The notes under the pieces were generated by a model that saw nothing but the letters and a program-made list of their open reading frames with translations, made no database searches and was not told the DNA's origin. From positions 1 to 64,000 of the forward strand of contig JBKBRF010000007.1 of the NCBI GenBank assembly GCA_046292385.1: 64,000 bases of DNA, read 5' to 3'. Both the position numbers and the translations under genes were made by a program. The stretch comes from Armatimonadota bacterium (lineage in GTDB: Bacteria; Armatimonadota; SYMT01). Below, piece by piece: positions 1-24,258 of the stretch (position 1 is the stretch's first letter; each line of letters starts with the position of its first letter).

Positions 1-89
1 AGTTTGAAGATGGGAAACGCACCAAGTGCCTGGCGGCGATGAGCCGCGAGCGGGCAGCGGAACGCGAGTGGGAGAAGGTCGCCGCCTGA
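1..89 (+). CDS. 3' end of an unknown CDS (partial)
   Basis: Frame from position 3 reads FEDGKRTKCLAAMSRERAAEREWEKVAA, stop TGA at 87-89. Confidence 0.45.
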   Translation, partial: FEDGKRTKCLAAMSRERAAEREWEKVAA

Positions 90-124
90 TCCGCTTTTAC
101 ACACCTATTGACAAGAGCTCCTCG

Positions 125-745
125 CGGGTTCGGAGGTGTTGCCCCTCCAAAGACATTGCGGTGGTAGCTAATGCAAGGTCGAAGCAGCGACCTCCTTGCT
201 GAAGCCGCCTTCGGCGGCCACCATCCTACGCCCGCGCCCCTACGGATTGGCCACCAACGTCCGGTGGAACCGGCTTCGACCTCCGATCCATGCCACCGTC
301 ACTGCGGGGTCACCTGGCGTTCACTGACGGGTGAGTCGACATCCACATGGCCCCGGAACGTCGTTGTTGGCCTAACAATTGGTCCGTACTTCCGGCCTCT
401 CCAGGCACGGTGAGGTACGGATTCCTGGTCCTAGCGGCAGGACTTTTCGCAGGAGCATGCAGCAGTGTGCCCGGAACACCCGCACGACCACATCGCGGAG
501 GGTGACCGGCTAAGTCGAACGGCCGTTACCCTCCTGCTAAAGGCGCGGCGGTCACCGCGCACAGGCCAGAACCCTAGGCTCCTGCCCTAACGGCGTCTGT
601 CACAGGTACGATGCCGGCGGTGACTGCGGCCTGGAGCACGGACGCGGATGAGAATCGGCTTCCCATCCCGATCTCGCCGCCTCGGTTCGAGAGCTCCGAC
701 GGGTAACGTGGGAGGGAGCGATCAGGCCCCCCTCACCCTTCCCGG
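125..745. ncRNA. Candidate large structured non-coding RNA or ssDNA element upstream of the polymerase
   Basis: No credible CDS; nested stems 241-246/383-388, 249-259/362-372, 296-301/325-330, 497-506/525-534, 173-178/194-199, hairpin 204-218. Confidence 0.35.
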
Positions 746-756
746 AGTTTTCCTGT

Positions 757-2157
757 TTGAGTTACATCTATGCCCCCCAGGCTGTGTCCCGAGAGTTGCG
801 CGATGCCGCTCTGGACCTCCACCCCGCCCTGCGAGGAGATGACCCTCGCGTCCAGCAGTTCCGACGCCTCTACGGGCACTTCTTGTTCTGCAACTACCTC
901 GACGAGCACGGACGGATCATCACTCCTCACCGGACGGTCCAGGTGGTATCCGAAGTGACGGCTCACCGAAAGGGAAAAGGAACCGGCGCGGTCCTTCGGG
1001 AGTTCAACGAGCAGGTCATGCCTATCGACCTGTCTGGCTACAGTAGGGAGTATGGGCTGGCCCGAACAGTGGACCCGCAGTTCCCCGCGGAGATCCTGTG
1101 GTTGAAGTCAAAGAGCCTGCCGCGGGATCCGGAGTTGCCGCGCGACCGCGTCGACTTTGCGACGGGTGAACGCGTTTCGGCCTTCGCCTCACACCAACGG
1201 GCCGCCGACTACGCGTCTCGGCTCCAGCAACAGCTCGTTGTCCCGCTCCACGGTCATACCGCGGAGCTGGCTGGGATCCTCAACGACCAGCCGCGACACG
1301 CGCTGCTGAAGCAGATCCGCCGCGGATGGGACGCCACGAGGCAGTACGTTCAGGAGCTGCCACACGGTCTCTGCCGCCACCTAACCGAAAACATTCTGCT
1401 ACACCTGCTGGAGTTCTCGCCGGTCCCGCAGTACAGTGCGGTGGAGCGGTCGCCGCGGCTGTTCGCCCAGGGGGTGAATCTCACCCAAACACCGCGGGAA
1501 GGGCGGGGACATCTTCTCGGGGGCACGCTACTCGACCTCCGCTGCGCTCAGCTCGCGATCGTGGCGACCCTCTGGGGGGTGGACGAACTCCGGCAGTTCC
1601 TGGCGGACGGAGGCGCCATCTGGAAGGAGCTTCTGGGGCACGTCGGCCTCGGGGATCAGCTCGAGAGGTTTAAGCCCGTGCTCAAGGAGGCGGTCTACGG
1701 TACCATCTACGGGGCGAAGCGCCACAACGTGCTGCGGGAGCTCTCCCGCGGTCGGCCCGCGGCGCCCGGCGTGGGAGACGAGAGGGCGAAGACGCTGCTC
1801 GAGCACCCGTTCATGCAGGTACTGTTCGACCGCCGGGAAGCCAGGCAAGCGCAGATCCTTGACGACGGCGGCGTACGCAACGCCTTCGGCCAGTGGATTC
1901 CGTGTACCACTGGCCACCCGCATGAACTCCGCTCCCTCCTCTGCCAGCAGGTTCAGAGTTTCGAGATGCGGCTGATGCTCACGCTGGTGCCGGTGTTGCG
2001 GGACGAGCGCAACCTGCGCCCGCTCGCGTGGCTGCACGACGGGCTCGTCGTTCACGTAACGGACGACACGAAGTACACGCGAATCATCGCCCGGATGAAA
2101 CGCGTTGTTCAGGTCGAAGCGGACCGACTGGGCTTCCCCACCGGACTGGACCACTAG
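757..2157 (+). CDS. Divergent superfamily-A DNA polymerase (TV-Pol-like, no exonuclease domain)
   Basis: RLFAQGVNLTQTPREGR (PolA motif 2-like), motif A LLD260LRCAQLAIV, motif B KPVLK310EAVY314GTIYG, QSFE helix, motif C WLH427D428GL; TTG start with GGAG at 744-747. Confidence 0.75.
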   Translation: MSYIYAPQAVSRELRDAALDLHPALRGDDPRVQQFRRLYGHFLFCNYLDEHGRIITPHRTVQVVSEVTAHRKGKGTGAVLREFNEQVMPIDLSGYSREYGLARTVDPQFPAEILWLKSKSLPRDPELPRDRVDFATGERVSAFASHQRAADYASRLQQQLVVPLHGHTAELAGILNDQPRHALLKQIRRGWDATRQYVQELPHGLCRHLTENILLHLLEFSPVPQYSAVERSPRLFAQGVNLTQTPREGRGHLLGGTLLDLRCAQLAIVATLWGVDELRQFLADGGAIWKELLGHVGLGDQLERFKPVLKEAVYGTIYGAKRHNVLRELSRGRPAAPGVGDERAKTLLEHPFMQVLFDRREARQAQILDDGGVRNAFGQWIPCTTGHPHELRSLLCQQVQSFEMRLMLTLVPVLRDERNLRPLAWLHDGLVVHVTDDTKYTRIIARMKRVVQVEADRLGFPTGLDH

Positions 2158-2746
2158 GCTCTTAGGAACCTGTAATCCGATTCTTGAGGCGGAGGGCGAC
2201 GCGGGGCACCCGACCAGCGGCCCCCAGGCCACCGGGAGGGGGCGGGAGGCCCCCACCCAGGGAGGCCCGGGCGTATGTGTCCCCCCAACTACCAGATTCG
2301 TGGCTAGATTCTCTTCACCGGCATGCTAACTTGCCCTGCTGGGGCGATAGCGGCTGTTGCACGACTGCCTGGCGTATCAACGGGTCGCTGCCGCGGGAGC
2401 CGCTTGCGGGCGCAGACAAGCGCTCCGCTAACGGTGGCATCGCCCGGAACGCTGTTACACCCAAGGGATGATGACCGGGACGTGGCGTCCTCGATGGCTT
2501 CAAGAGTTCGTCAGCGGCGCGATTCCAGGGGAGCGCTACCGAGGACGCCCGCCGGTTCCACTCCGGCGCACTCCGCTGCCGTTTTCACGAGAGAGCTAGT
2601 CAACGGTTCCTGGCACCCGGGTCCGGGAACCGGCATCTCCCAAACCACTAATCGCCCGGGTATCGAGTCGCCCTGCGGTCAGAGACCCGCTCAACCAAGG
2701 AAGGAGTTCTCAAACAATAGTGTGAACCTCGCGCTGAGGTTCCGCC

Positions 2747-5700
2747 GTGCCCCCCGCCAAACCCCTCGTCCGCGCTACCCAGATCGGTGAGTTCATCCGC
2801 CACGGCGGCTGCGAGCGCCGTTTCAAGCTTGCCTTCAACGACTATGAGCTCGCGAACGCGCTCCCCTTCTTCTTCCAGCTCTCCACCACCATCGACCCGG
2901 TCCTCTCCGAGGCCGGCCGGCGCCGCGAGCGTGAGTGGGAGGAGCTAGTCCAAAGCGCCGGACTGGTAGATCTGTGCCGCTACGAGGAGCGGGAGGGCGA
3001 GGAGAAGACGCCCTGGGACGCCTTTGCGGCGCTGGCCGCGGCGCTGCCGGCGGGCACCAGTGGCTACGGCCGCGAGATCGAGGTCCGAGGGGAGATCGGC
3101 GGCTTCGCGGTGGTGGGCCGCATCGACTTCGTCCTGCTCCTCTGGACCGGGGACCGGTTCCGTCTCCGGCTTGTGGAGTGCAAAGCCAGCCGCCGCGACC
3201 GCACCTACCATCGCGTCCAGCTCGTCCTCTATCTCCTGATCCTGCGTCAGCTCCTCGCCGAGCAGCCCCTCGTGATCGACGGAGTTCCGGTCGCGCCCCA
3301 GGACCTGGAGTGCGTGGTCGCGCGGATCGACGAAGCGACCGACACGGTCCACGACGTGCTCGCGCTGCCGCCGCTGGACCTCTCCATGGAAGAAGCCGAC
3401 GTCCTCCGGCTGCTCGCCGCGAACGGTCCGCTCCAGCGCGTGCTCGCCACGGAGCTGGACGCGCTTCCGTTCCAGCTCGACTCGCGCTGCGACGACTGCG
3501 CTCTCCATGTCCACTGCCTCGCAGAGAGCGCTCGCCAGCGCCGGGTGGAGCTCCTGGGCGTTGACCCGAGCACTGCCCGCACGCTGCGGCAGGCCAGGAT
3601 CACCAGCCTTGACGACGTCGCCGAGCTCGACCTCGACAGCCCGGCGGCAGCCCGGATCCGCCGGGACCCCGGTTTCAGCGGCAACCTGGCAACCCTCGTG
3701 CTGAAGGCGCGGGCGCGGCGGCGCACCCTGCCAGGTGGCGACGGCGATCCGGAGGACCTGGAGGTGATGCCGCTCCCTCATAGCGGCAGCGGACAGCTCC
3801 CGGCCCACCTTCTCGATTCCGGCCGCCTCGTGCGCGTGTTTGTCTCGATCAGCTTTGACTACGTCGAGAACCGCGTCGGCGCGGTGGCCGCACACGTCAC
3901 CCGCAGTGACCGGCCGCTCTCGACACTGTTCCGCCAGGACGAGCAGGGGCGCTGGCGTCCGGACCCCGCCCCACGCGAGCAGTGGAAGGAAGACGGGAAT
4001 CCCGAGTGGCGGGAGCGTCCCGTGCAGGGCCAGGAGGTGGTCGGCGTCCTGCCCCAGGCGTGGTCCGGGGACTACGGCGCCGACACCGACCGCGAGCGGG
4101 ACCTGCTGCAGCGCTTCTTTGCGCGGCTCACCCAGGCGATCGGAAGCTACTGCCCTTCCGGTGAGGCGCCGGTCCACCTCTACTTCTGGAGCCGCGGCGA
4201 GGTCACGCGCCTGGTAGAAGCGTGCTCCCGCTGCGGAGGCGACCTGCTGGGACACCTCCGAGAGTTGCTCGGCTGCCGGGCCCCGCTCGAGCAGTTGATC
4301 TACTCCGTGCTGAAGGACGAGGTGGAGCACCGGTACGCGCTCGGCTGGTCCGGCAACGGACTGGTCGTCGCCAGCTCCCTCAAGTGGTTCGGGAGGCGCT
4401 TCCACTACACGCGCCGCGTCGGCGAGGAGGTCGTTGCGCTCGATCGGATCTTCGCCCAGGACCTTTTTGACTTCAAGACGACGCTCCGCTTCCGTGGAGA
4501 GAGGCCGGGGCAGCCGTGGCGGCCACCCGACGACACCGAGGCGGACCGTCACGCGTTCGAGGTTCACGCCTGCTTCGAGGACGCGCTGCCGGCGCCGTAC
4601 TGGCGGGCCGCTTGGGGCACCCTACCGGACCCGGAGGAGCCGAAAGTCCGGGTACGGCTGGACCCGAAGATCCGGGCGGCGCTGCGCCGCTACCGCCAGG
4701 CGGGCAGCCGACGCCTGCTCCGCGCCTATCTGGCCTCCCGCGTGCAGGCGCTGCGCTGGATCGAGGAGTCGATCAAGTTCAAGAACGACGGGATTCAAAA
4801 GCCGCCGCTGCGAGTAGACCGGCTCGCCAACTTCCAGCTCGGCGTCAACGACACCGCCCGCGCCGCGCTCGACTTCCTCTGGCTGGAGCAGCACGTCAAG
4901 GTGAACGACTGGTTGGCAACCCACCTTCTACCCCCGGTCACCCGCGTCCCCGAAGGTAAGACCGTCCCGCTCCGCAACCTCCGCGCCGTAGACGACAACG
5001 TGCTAGAGGCACAAATCGACCTCTCCGGCTACCCGTTCGACCGGGCCGCCCTGGAGACACGCTGTAGCTTCGCCGAGGGTGCCTTCGTACGCGTCAGCCC
5101 GTGCAGCGACGACCCCGCCCGCGGCCAGACGGTGAAGCAGCTCCTGCTGGCTGGCACCACCTGTGTAATCGAGCGGCTCGACTGGGAAGCCGGCGTCGTC
5201 CGTCTCGCCGTCCGACCTAACCGCGGGTCCGATCGGTACCTCCTCCGGAGCGGGGCATGGTCGACCGATCGGGATCCGTACCCGCACGCTACCATGGACG
5301 AGAGCCCCAGCGACTTCGTCGGCGGCCGGGTCGACGCCCGGCTACAGACCGGGCTCGGCTCGCACGCGTACTCCTGGTTCGACCCGACCGGGGCGCAACT
5401 CCCCGCCCAGGAGCCGCTCGAGGCGGAGCTCGCACTCCGATACGAGAGCCTGCTCCGCTCCTGGGCCGGGGCCAATTGCCCGCTGGCGGAGGACCAGCTC
5501 CGCGCCGCGCTCGACGGCTTGGGGGCGCGGGTGCAGCTTCTGCAGGGACCCCCTGGGACCGGTAAGACCCAGAGTACGGCGATAGCGATCCTGCTCCGGG
5601 TCCTGGCGCGGTATAGACCCGGCGACGTGGTGCTCGTGACGGGCAATACCCACCTCGCGGTCGATACGCTGCTCTCCCGCGTGCTCGCGCTGCTCCCCGC

Positions 5701-6910
5701 GTGGGAGGCGCACGTGACCGCGCAGGGACTCACGATGCCGCGTCTCCGCGTCGCGCGGGTCCACTCGTCGTTCTTCGGCACGCCCAGCACGGACGATCCG
5801 GTCGACCTCGGCGCCGATCGCTGCCACGTGCGGGTGCAGGAGTTGCAGGATGACGGCGTGCTGCTCCTCGGCGGCACCCCGGGAGCGCTGCTCAAGATGG
5901 CGGCCAATCTCGGCAAGTATCTTCCGTGGAAGCAGGAGCCGAACCGGTTCCAGGCGTCTCTGCTCGTCGTCGACGAAGCGTCGATGCTCCTCTTCCCGCA
6001 CTTCCTGGCGCTGACGTCGCTGACGCGGCAGGACGGGCAGATCCTGCTGGCCGGAGACCACCGACAGCTCGCGCCGATCATCGGACACGACTGGGAGAAC
6101 GAGGACCGGCCCACGGCCGTGCTCTACCAGCCGCACGTCTCCGCCTACGAGGCGGTCCAGCGCCTGAAGCTGGTGCAGGGTCTCCAGGACAACCAGATCC
6201 TACGCAGCGGCCTCCGCTACACCTTCCGGTTGCCGGCGCCGATCCGCGAGCTCCTCACGCGGCTCTACCGGCGCGACGGCCTGGAGTTGGAGGGGCGCAC
6301 CGACCCGGCCGGAGGTGGCGCTCCGCTGCCGACTTCGCCATGGGAGGCGCTCTGGAACGCGGAGGGCGGGTTGTTCCTGGTCACCCACGACGAGCGCAAC
6401 TCCAAGCAGTCGAACCCCATGGAAGCAGCGCTCATCCAGGAGATCCTGGCCGCGGGGGAGCGCCTGGGTCGGCTCGAGCCCGGCTCGGTCGGCATCGTAA
6501 TGCCGCACCGCTCGCAACGGGCGCTCCTGAAGCACGGGCTGCAGCAGTTCGACGGCGCCGTCGATGTGCTGGACACGGTGGAGCGACTGCAGGGCGGCGA
6601 GCGGGAGACGATCCTGGTCTCCGCCACCGCGAGTGACCCGACCGTGATCGCCGCTCGGGCCGACTTTCTCCTGAATCTCAACCGGGCGAACGTGGCGTTC
6701 AGCCGCGCGAAGCGGCGGCTGATCGTGGTGTGCGCGGAGTCACTCCTGACCCACATCGCGCCCGAGGTCGAGCACTACGAAGCGGCGGTCCTCTGGAAGG
6801 GGCTGCGGTCCCTCTGCTCGGAACCGGTAGCGCGGGTGACGCTCGGAGAGCATCGGGCTGAGCTGTGGAGGTATCCGCGCGGGGGTCCGTCGGGTGCCGG
6901 GTCTGGCTGA
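2747..6910 (+). CDS. Cas4/RecB-like PD-(D/E)XK Fe-S nuclease fused to a Dna2/UPF1-like SF1 helicase (TM0106-like architecture)
   Basis: GRID..LVECK..QLVLY nuclease motifs; N-terminal Cys plus CDDCALHVHC; HhH-like LLGVDPSTARTL; helicase motifs QGPPGTGKT, VDEAS, AGDHRQL, DTVERLQGGER, NRANVAFSRAKRR. Confidence 0.9.
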   Translation: MPPAKPLVRATQIGEFIRHGGCERRFKLAFNDYELANALPFFFQLSTTIDPVLSEAGRRREREWEELVQSAGLVDLCRYEEREGEEKTPWDAFAALAAALPAGTSGYGREIEVRGEIGGFAVVGRIDFVLLLWTGDRFRLRLVECKASRRDRTYHRVQLVLYLLILRQLLAEQPLVIDGVPVAPQDLECVVARIDEATDTVHDVLALPPLDLSMEEADVLRLLAANGPLQRVLATELDALPFQLDSRCDDCALHVHCLAESARQRRVELLGVDPSTARTLRQARITSLDDVAELDLDSPAAARIRRDPGFSGNLATLVLKARARRRTLPGGDGDPEDLEVMPLPHSGSGQLPAHLLDSGRLVRVFVSISFDYVENRVGAVAAHVTRSDRPLSTLFRQDEQGRWRPDPAPREQWKEDGNPEWRERPVQGQEVVGVLPQAWSGDYGADTDRERDLLQRFFARLTQAIGSYCPSGEAPVHLYFWSRGEVTRLVEACSRCGGDLLGHLRELLGCRAPLEQLIYSVLKDEVEHRYALGWSGNGLVVASSLKWFGRRFHYTRRVGEEVVALDRIFAQDLFDFKTTLRFRGERPGQPWRPPDDTEADRHAFEVHACFEDALPAPYWRAAWGTLPDPEEPKVRVRLDPKIRAALRRYRQAGSRRLLRAYLASRVQALRWIEESIKFKNDGIQKPPLRVDRLANFQLGVNDTARAALDFLWLEQHVKVNDWLATHLLPPVTRVPEGKTVPLRNLRAVDDNVLEAQIDLSGYPFDRAALETRCSFAEGAFVRVSPCSDDPARGQTVKQLLLAGTTCVIERLDWEAGVVRLAVRPNRGSDRYLLRSGAWSTDRDPYPHATMDESPSDFVGGRVDARLQTGLGSHAYSWFDPTGAQLPAQEPLEAELALRYESLLRSWAGANCPLAEDQLRAALDGLGARVQLLQGPPGTGKTQSTAIAILLRVLARYRPGDVVLVTGNTHLAVDTLLSRVLALLPAWEAHVTAQGLTMPRLRVARVHSSFFGTPSTDDPVDLGADRCHVRVQELQDDGVLLLGGTPGALLKMAANLGKYLPWKQEPNRFQASLLVVDEASMLLFPHFLALTSLTRQDGQILLAGDHRQLAPIIGHDWENEDRPTAVLYQPHVSAYEAVQRLKLVQGLQDNQILRSGLRYTFRLPAPIRELLTRLYRRDGLELEGRTDPAGGGAPLPTSPWEALWNAEGGLFLVTHDERNSKQSNPMEAALIQEILAAGERLGRLEPGSVGIVMPHRSQRALLKHGLQQFDGAVDVLDTVERLQGGERETILVSATASDPTVIAARADFLLNLNRANVAFSRAKRRLIVVCAESLLTHIAPEVEHYEAAVLWKGLRSLCSEPVARVTLGEHRAELWRYPRGGPSGAGSG

Positions 6911-6974: not shown

Positions 6975-7247
6975 CTACCGCTCGCCGCGACGAAGTCGGG
7001 GGCGAGTCACCTGTGCCGAGGGCTCATCGGCCAGCGCCTCTGCCCGGGTAATGAGCTCGGCGGCGCTCAGCCCAAGCGCGTCCGCCAGTCGGAAGACCAT
7101 GCTGATCGTGGCGCTGTACTGCCCGTTCTCCAGGTAGCTGATGTACGGACGCGTGCAGTCGATCGCCTCCGCCAGCTTCTCCTGGGAGAGGCCGGCGTTC
7201 TGACGCAACTCGCGCAGCACTTGCCCGAACGCCGCTTCCGGGGTCAC
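6975..7247 (-). CDS. XRE-family HTH transcriptional regulator
   Basis: FGQVLRELRQNAGLSQEKLA..YISYLENG..LADALG, typical HTH_3 pattern. Confidence 0.9.
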   Translation of the reverse strand: MTPEAAFGQVLRELRQNAGLSQEKLAEAIDCTRPYISYLENGQYSATISMVFRLADALGLSAAELITRAEALADEPSAQVTRPRLRRGER

Positions 7248-7401: not shown

Positions 7402-7740
7402 ATGATGCCGAGTATCTGGACCGTGAGCTACGTTCACCGCGACGGGATCGACGTGTCGACCTACAGCTCCGAGGAGGCTGCCTACCAGGGCGCTGCCATT
7501 ACGATCGCCAACCAGGTGGAGAACTGGGGTACGGAGCTCAAAGGTGAGACGCTGGCCGAGTTGTTCCTCGGCGGGCAGTACCGGGAGATGGTGAATCGCT
7601 GGCAGGAGCAGCAGCGCCCCGGACCCTGGGGTGAGCCCGAGCGATTGGAGTTCGAGCAAGACGACGTAGACGCGCCGCTTGCCGCGCTCGAGCAGGTCCA
7701 GGAGAAGGTGCGCCGCTGGCTGCGCGAGGACGAGGCGTGA
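7402..7740 (+). CDS. Hypothetical protein (112 aa)
   Basis: GAGG RBS, coding-like codon bias, downstream of the 7296 promoter. Confidence 0.7.
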   Translation: MMPSIWTVSYVHRDGIDVSTYSSEEAAYQGAAITIANQVENWGTELKGETLAELFLGGQYREMVNRWQEQQRPGPWGEPERLEFEQDDVDAPLAALEQVQEKVRRWLREDEA

Positions 7741-7832
7741 GCCTGGGGCCTGGGTGAAGGCCGGAACACCCAAGCTGATCTTCAGGCGGACGTGGATCGC
7801 GAGCGATGCTGAACGGGAGATGGAGAAGCGAC

Positions 7833-8690
7833 ATGGAAGCAAGAGCGAACCAGTATCGAATGGAGTATCTGCCGACGGGAGCCCTAGATCTCGACCCGCA
7901 GCAGTCCGGAAAGCGGAGAGATGAGCCCCGCCGGCTCGCCAGCCTCAAAGCGAACATCCAGCAGCGCGGATTACTGCACCCCCTCCTGGCACGACCGTAT
8001 CGGGATGATCCGGAGCGTTTTCGCGTCTACGCGGGAGGACGCCGGCTACTCGCCCTGAGACAGTTGCAGGCTGAACTTCCGGGAGAGTGGGACTTCGTAC
8101 CCTGCTTCATCACGGAGGGCCAAGGCGATGTAGAGGCCCTGGTGGACTCGATCTCGGAGAACGTCCACCGCCAGGACCTCACCGCGCTGGAGAAGGGAGA
8201 GAACATCCTCCAACTGATCGCCGCGGGCCTCAACATGAAGCAGATTGCTCCGATCGTGAACCTGGACTACGGCTTGATCCGGGACTATGCCGCAGGAACG
8301 CGGCACGCCATCGCATGCCCCGATCTCATGGAACTCGATCGGCAGAAGCCGATCCCGGAACGGATCCTGAAGGTGCTCCCGAAGGATCCCGAGCTACTCG
8401 ACTGGACGACCGCCCTATGGCGCGACTGGGAGGGAGACGTGGAGCCCCTCGCGAAGCGCATCACCCGCAAGCGGAAGGGCATCGAGTCTCCGGAGATCCC
8501 GGGAGGGCGGGGAGCATCTCGGATCGACCGCTTCCAGGCGTGCGTCAAGAGTCTTACCGCCGTCTGCGCGACGAACCTGCTGGAACTGGGGCCTCTCACC
8601 GCCGCGGAAGCCGTAGAGGTCCAACGCCTCCAACATTGGCTCGGACTCACCGCCACTCACCTCCAGTCGTTCGCCGCCCCGACCGAGTAG
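7833..8690 (+). CDS. ParB/RepB/Spo0J-family protein; start uncertain (7806, 7833 or 7860)
   Basis: LKANIQQRGLLHPLLARP..VYAGGRRLLA..SISENVHRQDLTALE (ParB N-terminal domain) followed by an HTH-like segment. Confidence 0.85.
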   Translation: MEARANQYRMEYLPTGALDLDPQQSGKRRDEPRRLASLKANIQQRGLLHPLLARPYRDDPERFRVYAGGRRLLALRQLQAELPGEWDFVPCFITEGQGDVEALVDSISENVHRQDLTALEKGENILQLIAAGLNMKQIAPIVNLDYGLIRDYAAGTRHAIACPDLMELDRQKPIPERILKVLPKDPELLDWTTALWRDWEGDVEPLAKRITRKRKGIESPEIPGGRGASRIDRFQACVKSLTAVCATNLLELGPLTAAEAVEVQRLQHWLGLTATHLQSFAAPTE

Positions 8691-8869: not shown

Positions 8870-9754
8870 CTAAGGTCCGTCCTTACGCAGCGTGAGCACA
8901 AACCGACCCGGCGTTACGCCGGTGGTCTTGCGCGGCGTGTGGCAGCCGAGACTATCCTGGAACAGGAGCCCGCGTCGATGATCGCAGCCCGGCAGTTCGC
9001 CGGCGTCGAGTGCCGCCCAGACCTCGCGGTCCTTGAGCAGCAGGGCGTCGACGCGCCGCTGGCTGTAGGGAACCGTGAACACCTTGAAGGGGGCGTTGAG
9101 CAGCCCCTTCGGGTCGTCGTAGGTCTGGGGCTCTTTCCCGTAGTACTTCGGGTCGACGTCCTTGCCCCAGTACATGATCATCACGTCGGGCGGGGTCGCG
9201 AGCGGCTTGCCGCCGAGACGCTCGTGCTGGAACCACGGCTGCGTCACGAAGTGGCTGTAGAGCATCGTCTGGCCGAGGTGCTCGTCCTTCGGCTGGACCA
9301 GCTTCTTGAACGCCGAGTCCTTGATCTCAGCCTTCAGGATCTCGCCGCTGTCCGGGTGCTCGTCCAGGATGAAGCGGTCTCGCGCCGTGATCGACTTCAC
9401 GTCGACGATGTAGCGCTTCCCCTGCGGGTCGTCGTCGTCCGTCACCTCGTAGGTCTCGAAGACCTCCCCGGTGCTCTTCACCCGGACCTTCTTGCGGCGC
9501 AGCGGCCGCGAGAGGCCGTTCAGCGTGCCGCGCAGGCGGTGCTCGTCGCTCTTGAGCGCGACCTCGAACAACCCGTTGAAGCCGAAGTGGCCGTGCTCGT
9601 CGATCGTGGGCTCCCCGTCGATCCACCCGAGGGCGCCGGTATTGCGGAACCCGGCGAGCGGTAGTCCGCGGCGGCGCCAGGAGAGAGAGATTCCCGCGGC
9701 TTCCAGGTGCTGGATTCTCTCGCTCCCGACGTGTCCCGCATCATAACCGGTCAC
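8870..9754 (-). pseudogene. Phage-type Cas4-like PD-(D/E)XK nuclease, probably degraded
   Basis: RGTLNGL (motif II, Asn where Asp is expected), YIVDVKS, HLGQTMLY; strong GC3 only from ~9000 to ~9650; ends look non-native. Confidence 0.5.
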
Positions 9755-10047: not shown

Positions 10048-10063
10048 TATGATTGGACGGAGC

Positions 10064-10330
10064 TCAACCGAACCTTACGGTGATTTCTGCGGCGATCGCG
10101 ATCGTCGGGGTGCTCCACGTGAGCGGCAGCACGTACTGCGCTACCAGGAAGCCGGTCTGCTCGTTGTCGATCCCGACGTAGCCGCCGAACTAGAACCCCG
10201 GAGGCGCGGTCCGGGTACTTCCGCCCGAAGTCGTCGGCCAGCTCCAGGAAACCGGTCACGCGCCCGAAGTCCGACTCGTCGACCACGCTGGACAGCTTGA
10301 GGAACAGGGGGTCGATCCCATGAACTGGTG
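10064..10330 (-). pseudogene. Gene remnant with a frameshift and an in-frame stop
   Basis: GC3-biased frame DPLFLKLSSVVDESDFGRVTGFLELADDFGRKYPDRAS shifts near 10196-10201 to GF*FGGYVGIDNEQTGFLVAQYVLPLTWSTPTIAIAAEITVRFG*; TAG at 10190-10192. Confidence 0.5.
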
Positions 10331-10616
10331 GCTTGCCTCGCCCTAACCGATCACCTGCAGCGTGATCGCCCCTGACCGCGTGACCTCGACGAGAGAAGCT
10401 CCACCGGTCCGATCTCCAGGCGCCCGCTGGAGCCGGCCAAGCCACCCCGCACCCGAGTTCACCGCCCCAACGACGGGGGCCTCTGGGTCACCGACACCGC
10501 GAGTGTCACCCATGCGTCGGACCCCTAAGGTCCAGGTAGGAACACCCCTCCGCGCCGTGCTACGATCCGGACCACAGAGGCGGGTGAGTAGTGAGCCCGC
10601 CGCGGAGATCATCACG

Positions 10617-11795
10617 ATGGACCTGATCAAGCTCGAAGGGGAGTTCCTTCGGCACCTCGCCGCGCGACAGAAGTGTAGCGCGGCCACCGTCAAGACGTAT
10701 CGTTCGGCCTTCCGACAGGCCTGGCGCTGCACCCAGATGATGGGCGTGGAACTGGACACCGAGGCACTCGACTACACCTGGGCCGACCTGCTGGTCGACT
10801 GGTGGTGCGGAGAGCAGAAGCTCGGCCCGCGAACGGTGCATCGGAACGTCACCGCCCTGCGCTCCATGTTCGCGTTCGCCCGGAAGCGGCGCTGGACCGA
10901 GCGCGACCCGTTCGCCCACCTCGACCTCCCTGACAAAGGTGCGGTCGAGCGGGTCCACCTCACCACCGACGACCAGAACGCGCTGGTGCGGGCCGCCGCC
11001 CATCTTCCCGATCCGCGCTTCGCGGCCATGGCCAGGGCCCTAGTCCTGACGCAGCTCACCGTGGGGACCCGGGTGAGCGAACTCCTCGACCTGAAAGTCA
11101 GCGACCTCGATCTCTGTCAGCAGGTGGTTCACATTAACCACGGCAAGGGAGACCAGGAGCGCGAGGTCGTGCTAGACGACCGGGCCACGGCGGCACTGGA
11201 GGTCTGGCTGCAGGTACGTCGGCAGTGGCTCGACACGCGGCAGGAGTCCGGACGCTTCCGGGGTGGGGAGCCGGAGGCGGTTTGGTTAGCGGATCGGGGG
11301 CGCCGCCTCTCCTCCCAGGGCGTCTACGCGCTCCTGGATGAGCTCACCGCCGGCACGCCCCTGGCCGGAAAGGTCCGCATCCATGACCTGCGCCACGCGA
11401 CCGCAAAGCGCTGGTTCCGGGATGGCGTGCCGCTGGAGCAGATCCAGCAGCGGCTGGGGCACTCCAGCCGAAGCACCACGGAGCAGTACATCCGGGGCGC
11501 GAGCCCGAACACCCGCCTCTGGGCCGAACGCTGCGGACTTCCGGAAACCGCCGCCCGCGGAGACAGCCCACACGCTCTCGGAGCGCCCGCCGCCGGTGAT
11601 CGCCCTCCGGTGCCGACCCCCGCTCCGAAGAACTCCGAACTCCCGCGACCGGGCCGATCGTTCCGCCCGCAACACCCGCTCGTGGCGCAGCACCTGCAGA
11701 ACCTGCGGGAGCGGATGCTCGCGCACGCGACCGGGGCTCACCCCCTCCCCTTCCAGCCACCGCTCTTCCCGGGGCTTCGGCCGCACCGCCGGTAG
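10617..11795 (+). CDS. Tyrosine recombinase/integrase (XerC-like) with a Pro-rich C-terminal tail
   Basis: SAATVKTY core-binding region; catalytic set GTRVSEL, GKGD, HDLRH, LGH, TTEQY; ATG 10617 preferred over 10362. Confidence 0.92.
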   Translation: MDLIKLEGEFLRHLAARQKCSAATVKTYRSAFRQAWRCTQMMGVELDTEALDYTWADLLVDWWCGEQKLGPRTVHRNVTALRSMFAFARKRRWTERDPFAHLDLPDKGAVERVHLTTDDQNALVRAAAHLPDPRFAAMARALVLTQLTVGTRVSELLDLKVSDLDLCQQVVHINHGKGDQEREVVLDDRATAALEVWLQVRRQWLDTRQESGRFRGGEPEAVWLADRGRRLSSQGVYALLDELTAGTPLAGKVRIHDLRHATAKRWFRDGVPLEQIQQRLGHSSRSTTEQYIRGASPNTRLWAERCGLPETAARGDSPHALGAPAAGDRPPVPTPAPKNSELPRPGRSFRPQHPLVAQHLQNLRERMLAHATGAHPLPFQPPLFPGLRPHRR

Positions 11796-11823
11796 GGACG
11801 GTACGCGCCGGACTATCCGGGCT

Positions 11824-11859
11824 CTCGACCCGCTCGCGCCACTCCGCTGGCGGGTCGAG
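11824..11859 (+). terminator. Hairpin downstream of the integrase
   Basis: Perfect 10-bp IR CTCGACCCGC/GCGGGTCGAG; no U-tract. Confidence 0.35.
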
Positions 11860-11951
11860 CCCGGCCCGTGCCGCGAACCGAGACTCGAGCCCGCTGAGTC
11901 ATGGTGAGAATCGCCTGGCTCCGCTGGACTCTACACGTGAAGAAGACCCGA

Positions 11952-11980
11952 TTGACAGGCCTCAGGGGATCGGCTAGACT
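11952..11980 (+). promoter_or_regulatory. Sigma70 promoter of tRNA-Gly
   Basis: TTGACA, 17 nt spacer, TAGACT, about 90 nt upstream of the tRNA. Confidence 0.8.
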
Positions 11981-12069
11981 ACCGATGGCTCAGGTCCACC
12001 GGAGACAGACGGGCGAGTCCAGAATCTAGGGTTCAACTCGTAGGCACACCGGACCGGAGATTCTGCCAC

Positions 12070-12141
12070 GCGGGAGTAGTTCAGTGGTAGAACGTCAGCT
12101 TCCCAAGCTGAATGTCGTGGGTTCGAGTCCCATCTCCCGCT
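12070..12141 (+). tRNA. tRNA-Gly(CCC), CCA not encoded
   Basis: Acceptor GCGGGAG/CTCCCGC, D-loop AGTGGTA, anticodon loop TTCCCAA, T-arm GGTTCGAGTCC. Confidence 0.97.
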
Positions 12142-19010: not shown

Positions 19011-19238
19011 AGAGCCATCCTGGGGAGCGGAGCCGCGCGGCTTTTCCTCCCTGCCTTCCGCGGCCTCCTATCGGAACATCTAACCAGAAGGCGCTTGCTT
19101 TACCCCCGCGCCTGAATCCGATACGCTAGGCGCGGCTTGCGCGGCTGTCCCTCCCGCCCGGGAGGGCGCGCCGACCGATTTACGGTGTGATCTACCCGCG
19201 GGTCAGCCCCGGGGAACGCCGGCGTCCGGAGTTTTATT

Positions 19239-21914
19239 GTGGATCTCTCGCAGCTTCAGTTCTCGTCGCCCTGGCTCGGGCTTCCTGTGACCTTTGGCAA
19301 CCTTGCCATCTGGGCGGGACTCGCCAGCGCGATTACCTGCGTGGTGCTCTACTGGACCGCCATGGTGCGGACCATGCGCCGGCCGGCAGACCCGGAGACC
19401 GCCTCGGAGACCGCCCGGGAAGGCGGTAAGAAGAACGGCAAGCGCGCCGCCTCGGCAGAGGCGGAGACGCCCTACGACCGCCGCACGGAGGCGGTGGGCC
19501 GCTGGGCACGCCGGTTCTTCTACCTCACCTCCGCCTGTATGGTGGTCGGCGCCGTTTCGCTCTGGACCGTCGTGCTCGGCCAGCAGTACACCGTCCAGTA
19601 CGTCTGGAAGAACAGCAACCCGGAGCTCCCGTTCGGCTTCCGGTTCGCGTCGTTCTGGGCCGACCAGGAAGGCACCTTCTTCCTCTGGGGTCTGCTGAAC
19701 GTCATTCTCGGCTCGGTGCTGATCTGGCGGACCCGCGGCGAAGAGCGCTGGGTGATGCCGTTCTTCACGCTGGTGCAGGTCTCGCTCTTCACCCTGCTCG
19801 CCTTCATGAACCCGTTCTGGATTCAGGAAGCGAAGCAGGTCAAGGCGCTGCTGGAGAGCATCCCGGGCGCGCCGGAGAACGTGGCGTCGTTCCTGCCGAG
19901 CACCGGTTGGGACCACACGCTCTACTACTTCGGCTGGGGCAAGTACCTCCACCCGCAGTGGATTACCGCGAACGGTCTGAACGAGCAGCTCCGCAACTTC
20001 TGGATGTGCATCCATCCGCCCACGCTCTTCGTCGGCTACGCGACGATGATGATGCCCGCCTGCTTCGCGATGGCGGCGCTGATGCGGCGGGACTACGACA
20101 GCTGGACCACCAAGGCGGCCCCGTGGCTGGCGTTCGGCTGGGGCGTGCTCGGCTTCGGCATCTTCCTGGGCGCCTACTGGGCCTACGAGACGCTCGGCTG
20201 GGGCGGCTACTGGAGCTGGGACCCGGTGGAGAACTCGTCGCTGCTGCCGTGGCTCGGCGCCACCACGCTGCTGCACGGCCTCCTGGCGCAGCGGGCCCGC
20301 GGCAACTTCAAGCAGGCGAACCTCTTCATCGGGATCACCCTCGGCACCCTCGTGCTGCTCGGCTCCTTCCTGGTGCGCAGCGGCGTGCTGTCGGAGACTT
20401 CCGTCCACTCCTTCGCCACGCCGCAGAAGGCGGTCTTCAACACGCTCCTCGGCGTCCTGGCGCTCTGGTTCGTCCTCAGCCTGGCGATCTGGGTCTGGCG
20501 CTTCAAGGACATCCAGTCCGAGATCGCCTATGAGAACCTCTGGGAGCGCCACTTCGGCTTCTTCCTCGGCCTGATCGTCCTCTCCGCCACCGCCGTGGTG
20601 GTGCTTTTCGGGGTGACGCTGCCGATCTGGAAGCCGTGGATCCCGATGCTGGGCGGTAAGACCAACGTCGACTACACCTTCTACAACAAGGCGCTGCTGC
20701 CGGTGGTCTACGTGATGGTGCTGCTCATGACGCTCACCCCGCTGATGCCGTGGCGGCAGTCGCGGGAGGGTGAGACGCGCATCAAGCCGTTCAGCAAGGT
20801 GATTCTGGGGCTCACCGGCCTGGTGACCGTTTTCTTCGCCTTCGCGGCAGTGCGCGCGTGGCAGGGCGGCTTCCGCACCCACCTCGACAGTCCGCCTTCT
20901 TACGTGAACGACCCGGCCTACATCGCCGTAGGGCTGCTCCTGGCGCTCGGTTTCATCGCCAACGCCGTCTGTCTCAAGCGCGCGGCGCGCGGCGGGTTCC
21001 TCCAGACCGGCGGCTGGGTCACCCACATCGGCTTCCTGGTGATGCTCGCCGGCGTGGTGGTGACGAGCCGCTTCAACACGGTGCACCAGGCGCAGGGCCT
21101 GCAGCCCGGCCAGAGCGCGACGCTGCTGGGGCGGCAGTTCACCTTCATCGGCGAGGAGAAGGGCGACGAGAAAAAGGGCATCCGCGACCGGATGCTGATC
21201 GACATGACGGTGAACGGCAAGACGACCCGCCTCGACCCGCCGGCGTTCATCTCGAACCAGGGTGGCCGTCCGCAGGCGATGGTCTGGCCGGAGATCCTGA
21301 ACGAGTGGATCGGCGGTGCCTGGGGTGACGTCTACGTCGCGCCGATGGGACCGGTCAACCCGCTCGGCGGCACCGTGTTCCTGGAAGGCGTGAAGAGCGG
21401 CGATCCCGAGCCGCAGCTGACGGCGGTACAGCTCCGTGAGGGCAACCCGGAGGAGATCGTCGGGATCCGCGTGCTCGGGTTCGACAACACCGGGCGTGAG
21501 CAGGGCCGCTTCGCCGCGAAGGTGATGCTGAGCGTCAACGGCGTAGAGAGAGAGCTGCTCGCCCCGATGGAGACCGGCCCGCGCGGGCCGGAGCCGGTAC
21601 CCGTGCCGGTAGAAGGGCTGAACCAGGGCACCGGCTACTCGCTGCTGTTCCGGAACGTCGACGCGAACACCGGGAGCTACGACTTCGCGCTGGTGCCGGA
21701 CGAGCCGATCACGCTCGGCTCCTTCCAGGTGCTGCACGTGCCGGGGATCCAGGTGCTCTGGTTCGGGAACTGGATGATGTGGGGCGGCGCCCTGATGGTC
21801 TTCTTCTACCGGCGCAAGCTGGCGCGGAAGGAGGTGCCGGTGAAGGCGGTGGGTGAGCCGGCGCGGGGACCGAAGCCGCCGAAGACGGCGCCCGAGCTGG
21901 CCGGCGCGGAGTAG
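19239..21914 (+). CDS. ccmF: Cytochrome c-type biogenesis heme lyase
   Basis: IHPPTLFVGY, WAYETLGWGGYWSWDPVENSSLLPW, SVHSFA. Confidence 0.93.
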   Translation: MDLSQLQFSSPWLGLPVTFGNLAIWAGLASAITCVVLYWTAMVRTMRRPADPETASETAREGGKKNGKRAASAEAETPYDRRTEAVGRWARRFFYLTSACMVVGAVSLWTVVLGQQYTVQYVWKNSNPELPFGFRFASFWADQEGTFFLWGLLNVILGSVLIWRTRGEERWVMPFFTLVQVSLFTLLAFMNPFWIQEAKQVKALLESIPGAPENVASFLPSTGWDHTLYYFGWGKYLHPQWITANGLNEQLRNFWMCIHPPTLFVGYATMMMPACFAMAALMRRDYDSWTTKAAPWLAFGWGVLGFGIFLGAYWAYETLGWGGYWSWDPVENSSLLPWLGATTLLHGLLAQRARGNFKQANLFIGITLGTLVLLGSFLVRSGVLSETSVHSFATPQKAVFNTLLGVLALWFVLSLAIWVWRFKDIQSEIAYENLWERHFGFFLGLIVLSATAVVVLFGVTLPIWKPWIPMLGGKTNVDYTFYNKALLPVVYVMVLLMTLTPLMPWRQSREGETRIKPFSKVILGLTGLVTVFFAFAAVRAWQGGFRTHLDSPPSYVNDPAYIAVGLLLALGFIANAVCLKRAARGGFLQTGGWVTHIGFLVMLAGVVVTSRFNTVHQAQGLQPGQSATLLGRQFTFIGEEKGDEKKGIRDRMLIDMTVNGKTTRLDPPAFISNQGGRPQAMVWPEILNEWIGGAWGDVYVAPMGPVNPLGGTVFLEGVKSGDPEPQLTAVQLREGNPEEIVGIRVLGFDNTGREQGRFAAKVMLSVNGVERELLAPMETGPRGPEPVPVPVEGLNQGTGYSLLFRNVDANTGSYDFALVPDEPITLGSFQVLHVPGIQVLWFGNWMMWGGALMVFFYRRKLARKEVPVKAVGEPARGPKPPKTAPELAGAE

Positions 21915-21992
21915 GGTGTGAGCGCGGCTGTCGCTGCCGGACGCCAGGGCCATGCGGTCCTGGCGTCCGCGGCATGGGGTGTGGAAAAGAGC

Positions 21993-23294
21993 GTGCGCGT
22001 AGTCCTGACCGGCTTGAGCCATAAGACGGCCCCGGTAGAGCTTCGAGAGAAGCTCTCCCTCTACGGTCGCTCCACCGAGCAGACGCTCCACGGCTTGCGA
22101 GACGCCGCCGGCATGGCGGAGTGCGCGGTCCTGAGCACCTGCAACCGCACCGAGTTCTACGGGATCAGCGCGGACGAGGACTGGCAGGAGCACGTGCTGG
22201 AGCTGACTGCCCGCACCGCCGGCGTCTCCCCCGGCCACCTGCAGGAGCATCTCTACTCCTACGAAGGGACGCCGGCGGTCCGCCACCTCTTCCGGGTCGC
22301 CTCCGGTCTCGACTCGATGGTGCTCGGCGAGGGACAGATCCTCTCGCAGGTCAAGGACGCGCTCCAGACGGCGCAGGAGGCCGGCACCTCCGGGACCGTC
22401 ATCCACGCGCTCTTCCAGCACGCTATCAGCAGTGGAAAGCGCGCCCGCTCCGAGACCGAGATCGGCCGCGGGGCGGTCTCCATCAGCCTCGCCGCGGTCC
22501 AGTTGGCGAAGCAGATCTTCCAGAGCCTGGACGGGCACGTGGTGCTGCTGATCGGCGCCGGGGAGACCGGCGAGCAGACCGCCCGGATGCTGCTGGCGGA
22601 CAACGCCCGGCCGAAGCTGGTCGTCTGCAACCGCACCCAGGAGCGCGCGGAGGCGCTGGCGGCCCAGTACAGCGGGGCAACCGTACCGTATGATCGTCTC
22701 GGCGATGCCCTGGCGCGCGCCGACATCGTGATCAGCTCTACCGGCTCTCCCGAGCCGATCCTGCCGCTGCCGCTGGCCAAACAGGTGATGCGCGCCCGGC
22801 GCGGCCGCCCGATGTTCCTGATCGACATCGCCGTGCCGCGCGACGTCGACCCGGTCGTGGGGGAGCTGGATGACGTCTACCTCTATAACATCGACGACCT
22901 CCAGGAAGTGGTGGAGAAGAGCCGCGCCGGCCGCCAGGCGGAGGCGGAGCGGGTGGAAGGGCTGATCGAGGAAGAGATCCGCAAGTTCCAGAGCTGGTCC
23001 CGCGGGCTGGAGGTGGCGCCGACGATCCGGCAGCTCCAGGAACTGGCGGAGCAGATCATCCGGGGCGAGCACGACCGCGTCGGCGGTCGGCTCTCCCACC
23101 TGAGCCAGCGCGACCAGGACATGGTCGACGCGCTGGTCCGCGGCGTGGTGAACAAGCTGCTGCGCGGGCCGATCGTCCGCCTCAAGCAGGCCGCCGACTC
23201 CGGCAACGGCTACCGGGAAGTGGAGAGTGTCCGCGCGATCTTCGGACTGCACGGCGACGATCCTGCCGCCGCCGACGAGCGGAGGGCGCCATGA
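21993..23294 (+). CDS. hemA: Glutamyl-tRNA reductase
   Basis: GLSHKTAPVELRE, LSTCNRTE, GLDSMVLGEGQILSQVK, IGAGE, IDIAVPRD. Confidence 0.95.
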   Translation: MRVVLTGLSHKTAPVELREKLSLYGRSTEQTLHGLRDAAGMAECAVLSTCNRTEFYGISADEDWQEHVLELTARTAGVSPGHLQEHLYSYEGTPAVRHLFRVASGLDSMVLGEGQILSQVKDALQTAQEAGTSGTVIHALFQHAISSGKRARSETEIGRGAVSISLAAVQLAKQIFQSLDGHVVLLIGAGETGEQTARMLLADNARPKLVVCNRTQERAEALAAQYSGATVPYDRLGDALARADIVISSTGSPEPILPLPLAKQVMRARRGRPMFLIDIAVPRDVDPVVGELDDVYLYNIDDLQEVVEKSRAGRQAEAERVEGLIEEEIRKFQSWSRGLEVAPTIRQLQELAEQIIRGEHDRVGGRLSHLSQRDQDMVDALVRGVVNKLLRGPIVRLKQAADSGNGYREVESVRAIFGLHGDDPAAADERRAP

Positions 23295-24256: not shown

Positions 24257-24258
24257 AC

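Follow-up and report, generated by a model that had tools for sequence, protein, structure and literature searches.

Results

Features of the locus and identity of the polymerase gene

We analysed the first 64,000 nucleotides (nt) of contig JBKBRF010000007.1 (assembly GCA_046292385.1; hereafter, this whole stretch is the window and the contig is C7) from a bacterium of the phylum Armatimonadota, and chiefly its segment 90-6910, which holds a gene for a minimal family-A DNA polymerase, a gene for an Fe-S nuclease-helicase, and two non-coding stretches around the former. An original prediction had joined these parts into a candidate new system, either a PolA-type analogue of a retron or a self-priming replication module. 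We find that the segment does not form one system and is best explained as a patchwork within a genomic island integrated at a tRNA-Gly gene, and that the polymerase resembles the TV-Pols described by Iyer, Abhiman & Aravind (2008, Biol Direct 3:39; PMC2579912). The features of the segment are the following.

1..120, plus strand: right end of a multi-copy insertion sequence (IS), comprising the 3' end of the transposase open reading frame (ORF; stop codon at 88-90) and the terminal inverted repeat
121..128, unstranded: 8-bp target-site duplication of the IS, CTCGCGGG, which is also found immediately before the IS left end on contig C24
121..756, unstranded: non-coding stretch upstream of the polymerase gene, with no codon periodicity, unique in the genome
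757..2157, plus strand: TV-Pol-like minimal family-A polymerase, 466 amino acids (aa), TTG start; helical N-terminal part (about residues 1-220), then thumb, palm, and fingers; key residues R234, D260, K306/K310, Y314, G319, Q400/E403, and H427-D428-G429
2158..2746, unstranded: non-coding spacer of 589 nt between the polymerase and nuclease-helicase genes, with no codon periodicity, unique in the genome
2747..6910, plus strand: DNA2/Cas4-like Fe-S nuclease-helicase, 1,387 aa, with PDDEXK_1 and AAA_11/AAA_12 domains (Pfam)

Codon-position GC, which separates coding from non-coding DNA cleanly in this genome of 65-70% GC, identified both long ORFs, 757-2157 and 2747-6910, as coding, with a spread of 0.29-0.46 for 757-2157. 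By single sequence, the polymerase had no match in Pfam, NCBIfam, PADLOC, PHROGs, or the PDB. It missed the gathering threshold of Pfam DNA_pol_A (PF00476) with no match at all, and one of 17 relatives scored 19.4 bits against this model, the cut-off of which is 34.3. The family-A kinship is seen only by fold and by profile comparison with the PDB. The AlphaFold model of the polymerase (pLDDT 73, pTM 0.61) gave 130 Foldseek matches in the PDB at E<=0.001, with a query TM of about 0.4, and the top ones, which included Taq, Klenow, Bst Pol I, and Pol theta, were all family-A enzymes. A structure search of the ESM Atlas, in which the Atlas's own model is used, independently gave PF00476 clusters (TM 0.52-0.55).

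A profile built from 70 sequences of the polymerase family matched Taq Pol I with an E of 6.1e-5. In this alignment D260 occupies the position of the motif A aspartate, K306, K310, Y314, and G319 fall in motif B, Q400 corresponds to the glutamine of the QG(T/S) motif, and H427-D428 correspond to motif C. We take the Taq residues aligned with K306 and K310 to be R659 and K663, respectively. Nine columns were invariant in the 70 sequences (Y226, R234, D260, W289, K310, Q400, E403, D428, and G429), among them the two aspartates that the original prediction had named as key residues, and K306 was conserved in at least 90% of them. R234 was placed between modelled strands 225-228 and 235-238. The N-terminal part, about 220 residues, was modelled as mostly helical, with the pLDDT falling below 50 in some segments, and no exonuclease domain was detected either by Pfam or in this mostly helical modelled N terminus. 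ORF 757-2157 is thus a family-A polymerase by fold and profile, and its earlier description as a 466-aa enzyme of this family devoid of an exonuclease holds good.

Size and distribution of the polymerase family

A word-based search yielded four relatives of the polymerase, 29-40% identical to it, the closest one at only 40%. A profile search covering 1.84 billion representatives, clustered at 50% identity, gave 1,521 representative clusters of the family at E<=1e-3 and 919 at E<=1e-30, nearly all of 430-600 aa. Within the phylum, the family was matched in 30 of the 401 genomes sampled (about 7%). The genome under study carries a second copy, 37% identical to the window protein, on contig C74 (L041:8835-10319, minus strand). 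None of the 17 family members checked by Pfam had a fused domain, and no longer fused forms of the polymerase turned up in a search that was weak for such forms.

When phage records and plasmids were searched with the polymerase by tblastn, the former gave no match and the latter a single one, on a Deinococcus megaplasmid. This homologue, on plasmid pDEIPE01 of Deinococcus peraridilitoris (NC_019789.1; L099:8932-10338), is 29.6% identical to the window protein, is annotated in RefSeq as "hypothetical protein," and lies near IS630-related transposase genes and small helix-turn-helix (HTH) genes.

Surroundings of the homologous genes and a delimited 5.1-kb element

We then determined what surrounds the polymerase gene in 20 genome loci and eight metagenome loci of its homologues, clustering all neighbouring ORFs of at least 60 aa and running Pfam on 136 of them. 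Integrases formed the only neighbour cluster present in more than three loci (eight loci). A recombinase or transposase lay within 4.5 kb of the polymerase in 9 of the 20 genome loci, being a tyrosine integrase in seven, a serine recombinase in one, and an IS630-type transposase in one; recombinases were also near the polymerase in three of the eight metagenome loci. Two of the 20 loci were prophages with terminase and portal genes, in which the polymerase occupied the early region. Defence-type neighbours included a type I restriction-modification (RM) system with an MmeI/Eco57I-like gene (L047), a Gabija-like OLD plus UvrD pair (L043), and DUF499/HEPN (L042), DUF4007 (L044), SMEK (L039), and Mrr (L058) genes. 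Some helicase, of the UvrD, SNF2, or ResIII/DEAD family, was found within 4.5 kb in five of the 20 loci. No small partner was conserved across the 20 loci by blastp clustering at E<=1e-6, a procedure by which poorly conserved OB-fold proteins would be missed. Taken together, the recombinases, RM systems, and defence genes around the homologues match the published neighbourhoods of TV-Pols (PMC2579912).

The clearest arrangement was found in genome G021, which belongs to the same taxonomic family as the genome under study. On its contig C362 (L040:7606-12741), two identical 47-nt copies of the 3' part of tRNA-Gly(ccc), in direct orientation, enclose a compact interval of 5,089 bp with an integrase gene, a polymerase homologue, and ORFs of 116 and 329 aa, neither of which had a match in Pfam, PHROG, or PADLOC. 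This interval has the layout of a minimal integrative element in which the polymerase is the main non-recombinase gene. The 116-aa ORF occupies the position that the single-stranded DNA-binding (SSB) partner has in CcPol-MP operons. On contig C74, the second copy of the present genome lies 3.4 kb from a tyrosine integrase gene (L041:13767-14963) that abuts tRNA-Ser(tga). Around the tRNA-adjacent integrases of L041, L058, and L053, no att repeats of 13 nt or longer were found within the DNA examined.

A separate observation concerns locus L056, in which three exact tandem copies with a 134-nt period (11654-11974) lie 270-590 nt upstream of the homologue of the TV-Pol-like polymerase. They are iteron-like, and nothing similar was seen in the other loci.

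The nuclease-helicase gene is linked to the polymerase gene only in the window

The gene that follows the polymerase co-directionally had been described as encoding a Cas4/Dna2-like nuclease-helicase, and this description was borne out. Its product consists of an N-terminal PD-(D/E)XK nuclease with four Fe-S cysteines, a middle region of about 600 aa that is uncharacterised, and a C-terminal SF1B helicase of the Upf1/DNA2 type. In 15 sequences, the cysteines C22, C248, C251, and C257, which follow the Cas4/AddB/DNA2 pattern, the nuclease residues D127, E144, and K146, the Walker A motif (934-941), and the DEAS motif (1076-1079) were invariant. The best sequence match in the PDB was DNA2 (E=7.5e-11). 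No PADLOC model spans the protein, the matches of MkoA, MkoC, and DpdJ covering the helicase C terminus only. The closest comparators are DNA2, the bacterial DNA2-like "Bad," and the Nhi-type nuclease-helicases, to the extent that these are treated in PMC7430649 and bioRxiv 10.1101/776245. The protein shares with them the fusion of a PD-(D/E)XK nuclease, bearing four Fe-S cysteines, to an SF1B helicase of the Upf1/DNA2 type, and it differs from them in its length of 1,387 aa and in the stretch of about 600 aa that separates these two domains.

The original prediction had proposed to test whether this gene accompanies the homologues of the polymerase. By tblastn, a relative of the nuclease-helicase was found beside the polymerase in none of the 20 genome loci and none of the eight metagenome loci. 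The nuclease-helicase was matched in 19 of the 401 genomes of the phylum at E<=1e-40, with full-length orthologues in G021, G345, G230, and G003 and fragments in G144, G001, and G074. Both genes occurred in two of the 401 genomes, the present one (G000) and G021, against about 1.4 expected by chance, and in G021 they are on different contigs. Full-length orthologues that are 46-64% identical to the window protein were found in Armatimonadota, Cyanobacteria, Myxococcota, Acidobacteriota, and Proteobacteria. Their neighbours were housekeeping or unrelated genes (EutBC, MurJ, PPDK, a P-type ATPase, a Z1-domain protein, Mrr-TPR), with no polymerase homologue among them. The remaining island genes (HTH, ParB-like, and small ORFs) showed no synteny with either gene elsewhere.

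Since the nuclease-helicase orthologues are 46-64% identical across phyla and the relatives of the polymerase are only 29-40% identical to it, the two genes have had discordant histories. The nuclease-helicase is an independently mobile, stand-alone gene and a neighbour of the polymerase only here. It is probably an independent defence or repair cargo and, by analogy with the DNA2-like Bad and Nhi proteins, may be a single-gene defence or repair enzyme.

The non-coding stretches have neither distinctive folding nor conservation

The two stretches of about 600 nt on either side of the polymerase gene, 121-756 and 2158-2746, had been presented as ORF-poor and hairpin-dense. The former attribute was confirmed, the codon-position GC spread being at most 0.11 in both stretches and the ORFs inside them, such as 171-413 and 2323-2790, showing no coding signal. 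The latter was not. The global folding z score was -1.96 for the upstream and -1.64 for the downstream stretch (-2.64 and -1.29, respectively, in a re-run), and four other intergenic stretches of about 600 nt in the window ranged from +1.34 to -3.09. In local windows of 120 nt, the mean z was -0.94 and -0.28 (plus and minus strand, respectively) upstream and -0.09 and -0.27 downstream; no 120-nt window of the flanks went below -2.5, while windows within coding sequence reached -3.6. The size of the stretches alone is also unexceptional, given that 7 of the 45 gaps in the window are of 500 nt or more (by a crude gene caller).

Neither stretch had a match in Rfam, even at E<=1, or contained direct, inverted, or tandem repeats or iterons above the background. 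A simple scan of 7.4 kb found one sigma-70-like and one terminator-like site, neither of them in the flanks. No flank sequence was shared among the 21 loci, the flanks of the window being unlike those of the 20 homologous loci; these flanks do not align, and the closest polymerase relative has only 40% protein identity. Upstream of the nuclease-helicase orthologues, the DNA was conserved only from the start codon on. When 498 ORFs of the 20 loci were compared with the flanks by tblastn for remnants of neighbouring genes, the matches were at chance level only (lowest E 0.003). Both stretches are best explained as ordinary junction and promoter DNA that separates modules acquired independently of one another. 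Strong folding was observed in the 250 nt upstream of the polymerase in L044 (z -5.4) and in the 250 nt downstream of it in L050 (z -5.1).

An insertion sequence truncates the upstream stretch and joins C7 to C24

The window begins at base 1 of C7, in an assembly of 91 contigs and 7.0 Mb. Bases 1-120, which form the end of the IS, were found again at six other contig ends with 98-100% identity, and a seventh match was partial. The contig begins at this point because the multi-copy IS breaks the assembly there. An imperfect terminal inverted repeat pairs the IS end of the window with the IS left end at the terminus of C24. Among the seven IS right-end flanks examined, that of the window alone matches the 8 nt preceding the IS left end of C24. 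This match at both IS ends indicates that C24 and C7 are adjacent, with one IS copy between them, the two ends of which are window 1-128 and L097:6691-6818 (the end of C24). The same IS terminates at least seven contigs on each side and is a main cause of the assembly breaks; contig C74, which carries the second polymerase copy, also begins with the same IS end as the window.

The upstream non-coding stretch has thus been cut short by the IS insertion, 636 nt ahead of the polymerase start codon. It was once part of a divergent intergenic region of roughly 0.8-0.9 kb, the closest upstream gene on C24 being on the opposite strand. The C24 genes closest to the polymerase are a divergent ORF of 286 aa and genes for a QatC-like protein, an RmrA-like HTH-M78 peptidase, and a type IIG-like methyltransferase.

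The defence-type genes that lay upstream of the polymerase prior to the arrival of the IS occupy C24:96061-101714 (L097:61-5714). Their matches had E values of 8e-51 for the type IIG-like methyltransferase (PADLOC), 2.5e-22 for the RmrA/CapP-like HTH-M78 peptidase, and 1.9e-40 for the QatC-like protein.

The island and its remaining genes

Beyond the nuclease-helicase, the window continues with the following features up to the boundary of the island.

6975..7247, minus strand: Xre/C-protein-like HTH regulator, 90 aa (Pfam HTH_31/HTH_3; PADLOC "Control_protein" and HTH_VI models)
7402..7740, plus strand: small ORF, 112 aa, coding by GC at third codon positions (GC3), no family
7806..8690, plus strand: ParB-like protein, 294 aa (Pfam ParB_N, E=1.2e-5, just below the cut-off; NCBIfam parB_part, also below the cut-off; PHROG ParB-like, E=5.9e-15)
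8870..9754, minus strand: ORF, 294 aa, with very high GC3 and no family; weak PHROG "exonuclease" match (E=2e-4)
10362..11795, plus strand: tyrosine integrase, 477 aa (Pfam Phage_integrase, E=1.3e-28)
12066..12141, plus strand: tRNA-Gly(ccc), with the tRNA at 12070-12141; island boundary

The integrase and the tRNA-Gly(ccc) gene agree with the earlier placement of the locus in an integrase-bearing island. Window positions 12066-12104, i.e., 4 nt upstream of the tRNA plus its 5' half through the anticodon, have an exact 39-nt copy at C24:60711-60750 (L095:4711-4750), about 42 kb from the C24 end. On the left of this copy lie the host genes SecDF and SMR, and on its right a gene for a 350-aa integrase together with a frameshifted integrase fragment that shares 49% identity with the integrase of the window. 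The GC content falls from about 0.70 to 0.61-0.68 between the C24 copy and window position ~12,100. These sequence features suggest a composite island of about 54 kb in tRNA-Gly, of which the C24 copy is likely the other end. Genes of a housekeeping type, for PFK, RNase J, and CTP synthase, are also present in the putative 54-kb interval.

Two further observations were made in the window. In 10060-10360, a weak codon-position GC signal in the frame of the integrase continues for about 300 nt ahead of the earliest start codon available to this gene, which may formerly have been longer or may be damaged at its 5' end. Outside the island, 19203-26193 contains an ORF of 1,349 aa (minus strand) with no Pfam family, beside a protein of 988 aa with Schlafen/AlbA_2, HATPase_c_4, and Fic-like C-terminal domains, and this region may be another defence-type locus.

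Discussion

Relation to TV-Pols, CcPol-MP, and pipolins

TV-Pols are proteins of 400-600 aa that are not recognised by Pfam DNA_pol_A and have a thumb, a beta-hairpin with an absolutely conserved arginine, two catalytic aspartates in an RRM-like palm, and fingers with an RxxxK motif; they lack an exonuclease and are never linked to nucleases (PMC2579912). One subset has an all-helical N-terminal domain, adjoins genes for integrases, resolvases, or IS630/IS605 transposases, and is found in hot spots of mobile elements and RM operons; TV-Pols are known from planctomycetes and many other phyla, and in mobile elements, polymerases and primases as a rule come with a helicase partner, which may be exchanged for another (PMC2579912). 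The polymerase described here shares most of these traits. The invariant D260 and D428 align with the motif A and motif C aspartates of Taq, the conserved R234 sits on a beta-hairpin ahead of the palm, and the fingers motif is present, as KxxxK here versus RxxxK in TV-Pols. The enzyme is stand-alone, with no exonuclease, nuclease fusion, or conserved nuclease neighbour found, and the neighbours of its family are integrase, resolvase, or IS630-type genes in hot spots of RM systems and mobile elements. It differs in that its motif C reads H-D-G. On these grounds the polymerase is probably TV-Pol-like; membership in TV-Pol is not established by sequence comparison with any named member.

The second relevant comparison is with CcPol-MP, which Bebel and co-workers reportedly described in eLife in 2020 (PMC7581432) as a PolA-SSB primase of SCCmec elements. 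Both CcPol-MP and the present case involve an A-family polymerase domain encoded on an integrative element next to site-specific recombinases. CcPol differs in having no TV-Pol N-terminal domain, in needing a small OB-fold partner (MP) encoded just downstream of it, and in sharing an operon with a helicase, whereas here the 589 nt downstream of the polymerase (2158-2746) have no coding signal. CcPol-MP of SCCmec is, in what Rice (2023, PMC10061031) says of it, an A-family primase from a mobile element shown experimentally to prime DNA synthesis de novo when paired with a small SSB, and within the scope of that account, it is the sole biochemically tested relative of this kind of polymerase.

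Pipolins, as characterized in PMC11551731, are integrative elements that serve as defence islands and encode a family-B polymerase able to work without a primer. The likeness lies in the combination of an integrase with a polymerase of a self-priming type, att repeats, and a variable defence cargo. The polymerase here is of family A and not B, so the two are analogous and not homologous, and priming by the enzyme described here is putative.

A probable replication enzyme of an integrative element

We consider it probable that the polymerase serves to replicate an integrative mobile element, its activity and the excision of the element being suggested by the TV-Pol and CcPol literature. In such an element the integrase would excise the DNA at the tRNA repeats, and the TV-Pol-like enzyme would then copy the excised circle, possibly priming de novo as CcPol-MP does. 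The nuclease-helicase would have landed next to the polymerase, in this island only, as a separate mobile cargo. The self-priming replication module envisaged in the original prediction comes close to this explanation as regards the polymerase alone; for the non-coding blocks and the nuclease-helicase it is not supported, the tests of flanks and linkage having been negative.

Several findings weigh against this explanation or its parts. As to TV-Pol likeness, a search of Microcystis phage Ma-LMM01 with the family HMM was negative (best E 0.27 among 311 ORFs), and hhalign against a 506-aa ORF of this phage, located beside transposases, gave an E of 0.089 and a printed probability of 0.64 over 168 columns; in this weak alignment R234, D260, K310, G319, Q400, E403, and H-D-G align in order with identical residues. 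The N-terminal half of the polymerase model, with its segments of pLDDT below 50 under an overall value of 73, is of low confidence. The family lacks a conserved helicase or SSB partner such as the known TV-Pol and CcPol systems have, and 11 of the 20 loci showed no recombinase within 4.5 kb of the polymerase. The family is found among defence genes so often that a defence role is conceivable, and the neighbours in this island include QatC-like, RmrA-like, and type IIG-like ones. As regards the flanks, the 250 nt upstream of the homologues had a slightly more stable folding than coding controls (mean z -1.16 versus -0.35), with 4 of 21 and 3 of 21, respectively, below -2, and a regulatory or RNA structure in individual loci is possible. 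Promoters, leaders, and terminators would produce such mild upstream folding, which also varies from locus to locus.

Other explanations

It is unlikely that the polymerase is a stand-alone anti-phage defence gene, which would make aberrant DNA or sense phage replication intermediates and thus be a cargo of the island and not its replicase. The lack of a conserved helicase or SSB partner would suit such a role, as would the frequent defence-gene neighbours in L047, L043, L042, L044, L039, and L058 and the position of the gene in this island, between the QatC-like, RmrA-like, and type IIG-like genes and the DNA2-like nuclease-helicase. However, PADLOC has no match for the polymerase, recombinases are its only recurrent association, and two loci place it in the early region of a prophage. 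Moreover, the 5.1-kb element of G021, made up of an integrase, the polymerase, and two small ORFs between att repeats, has the layout of a minimal mobile element and not that of cargo.

The chances are slimmer that the gene now serves no function in the island and is an inert remnant of a decayed element. Decay could be read from the IS inserted 636 nt ahead of the start codon, from the mosaic nature of the island with a frameshifted integrase fragment near its far end, and from the lack of close relatives, the best identities being 33-40%. Against this, the polymerase frame is intact, with strong codon periodicity, and all nine family-invariant residues are kept.

Slightly less probable again is a local replication pair, with the helicase recruited to the polymerase in this island only. 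The two genes are adjacent and co-directional, the simple scan found no terminator-like site in the 589 nt that separate them, and the pairing and swapping of helicases by polymerases of mobile elements noted above (PMC2579912) would accommodate such a recruitment. The gap is long for an operon, though, and the orthologues of the nuclease-helicase, 46-64% identical to it, stand alone in many phyla, in keeping with the discordant histories of the two genes. The presence of some helicase within 4.5 kb in 5 of the 20 homologous loci, which might speak for pairing, involves helicases of other families (UvrD, SNF2, and ResIII/DEAD), several of them in recognisable other systems, and the reported absence of any linkage of TV-Pols to nucleases (PMC2579912) also disagrees with a pair.

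A retron-like system of a structured RNA or single-stranded DNA template, a PolA-type polymerase, and a nuclease-helicase effector is highly improbable: the two non-coding blocks of about 600 nt around the polymerase, the upstream one folding somewhat better than shuffled sequences (z -1.96 to -2.64), and the mildly negative mean z of the homologues' upstream flanks (-1.16) would favour it, whereas the enzyme is not a reverse transcriptase (RT) and has no RT family match in Pfam or PADLOC, the flanks have no Rfam match, no outstanding inverted or direct repeats, no similarity among the 21 loci, and a local folding no better than that of coding DNA, with a control intergenic stretch reaching -3.09, the upstream block is cut by the IS, and none of the 28 other loci has the proposed effector. 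The resemblance to retrons and DRT systems is superficial and limited to the layout, a polymerase gene adjoining non-coding DNA and a nuclease-type gene; the polymerase here is of family A and not an RT, there is no conserved structured RNA, and the supposed effector is unlinked to it elsewhere. As neither linkage of the homologues to the nuclease-helicase nor a conserved structure of the flanks was found, the candidate system and the retron analogy of the original prediction are not supported.

Implications

The proposed retron-like or defence system dissolves into three independently inherited pieces and is not to be pursued as a system. What emerges from the locus is a large polymerase family that is invisible to Pfam, NCBIfam, PADLOC, and PHROGs, although the TV-Pol paper of 2008 describes proteins with its features, and a profile for this family would improve the annotation of islands and prophages. 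The 5.1-kb att-flanked element of G021 offers a compact, testable model for family-A primase-polymerases that replicate excised islands. More tentatively, TV-Pol-like polymerases with a helical N terminus may mark widespread, small, self-replicating elements that integrate in tRNA genes and constitute the family-A counterpart of pipolins. The minimal form of such elements would be about 5 kb, with an integrase, the polymerase, and two ORFs, and the elements would expand to defence islands as they acquire cargo, of which the nuclease-helicase is an example, while the polymerase would prime its own synthesis without the SSB partner of CcPol.

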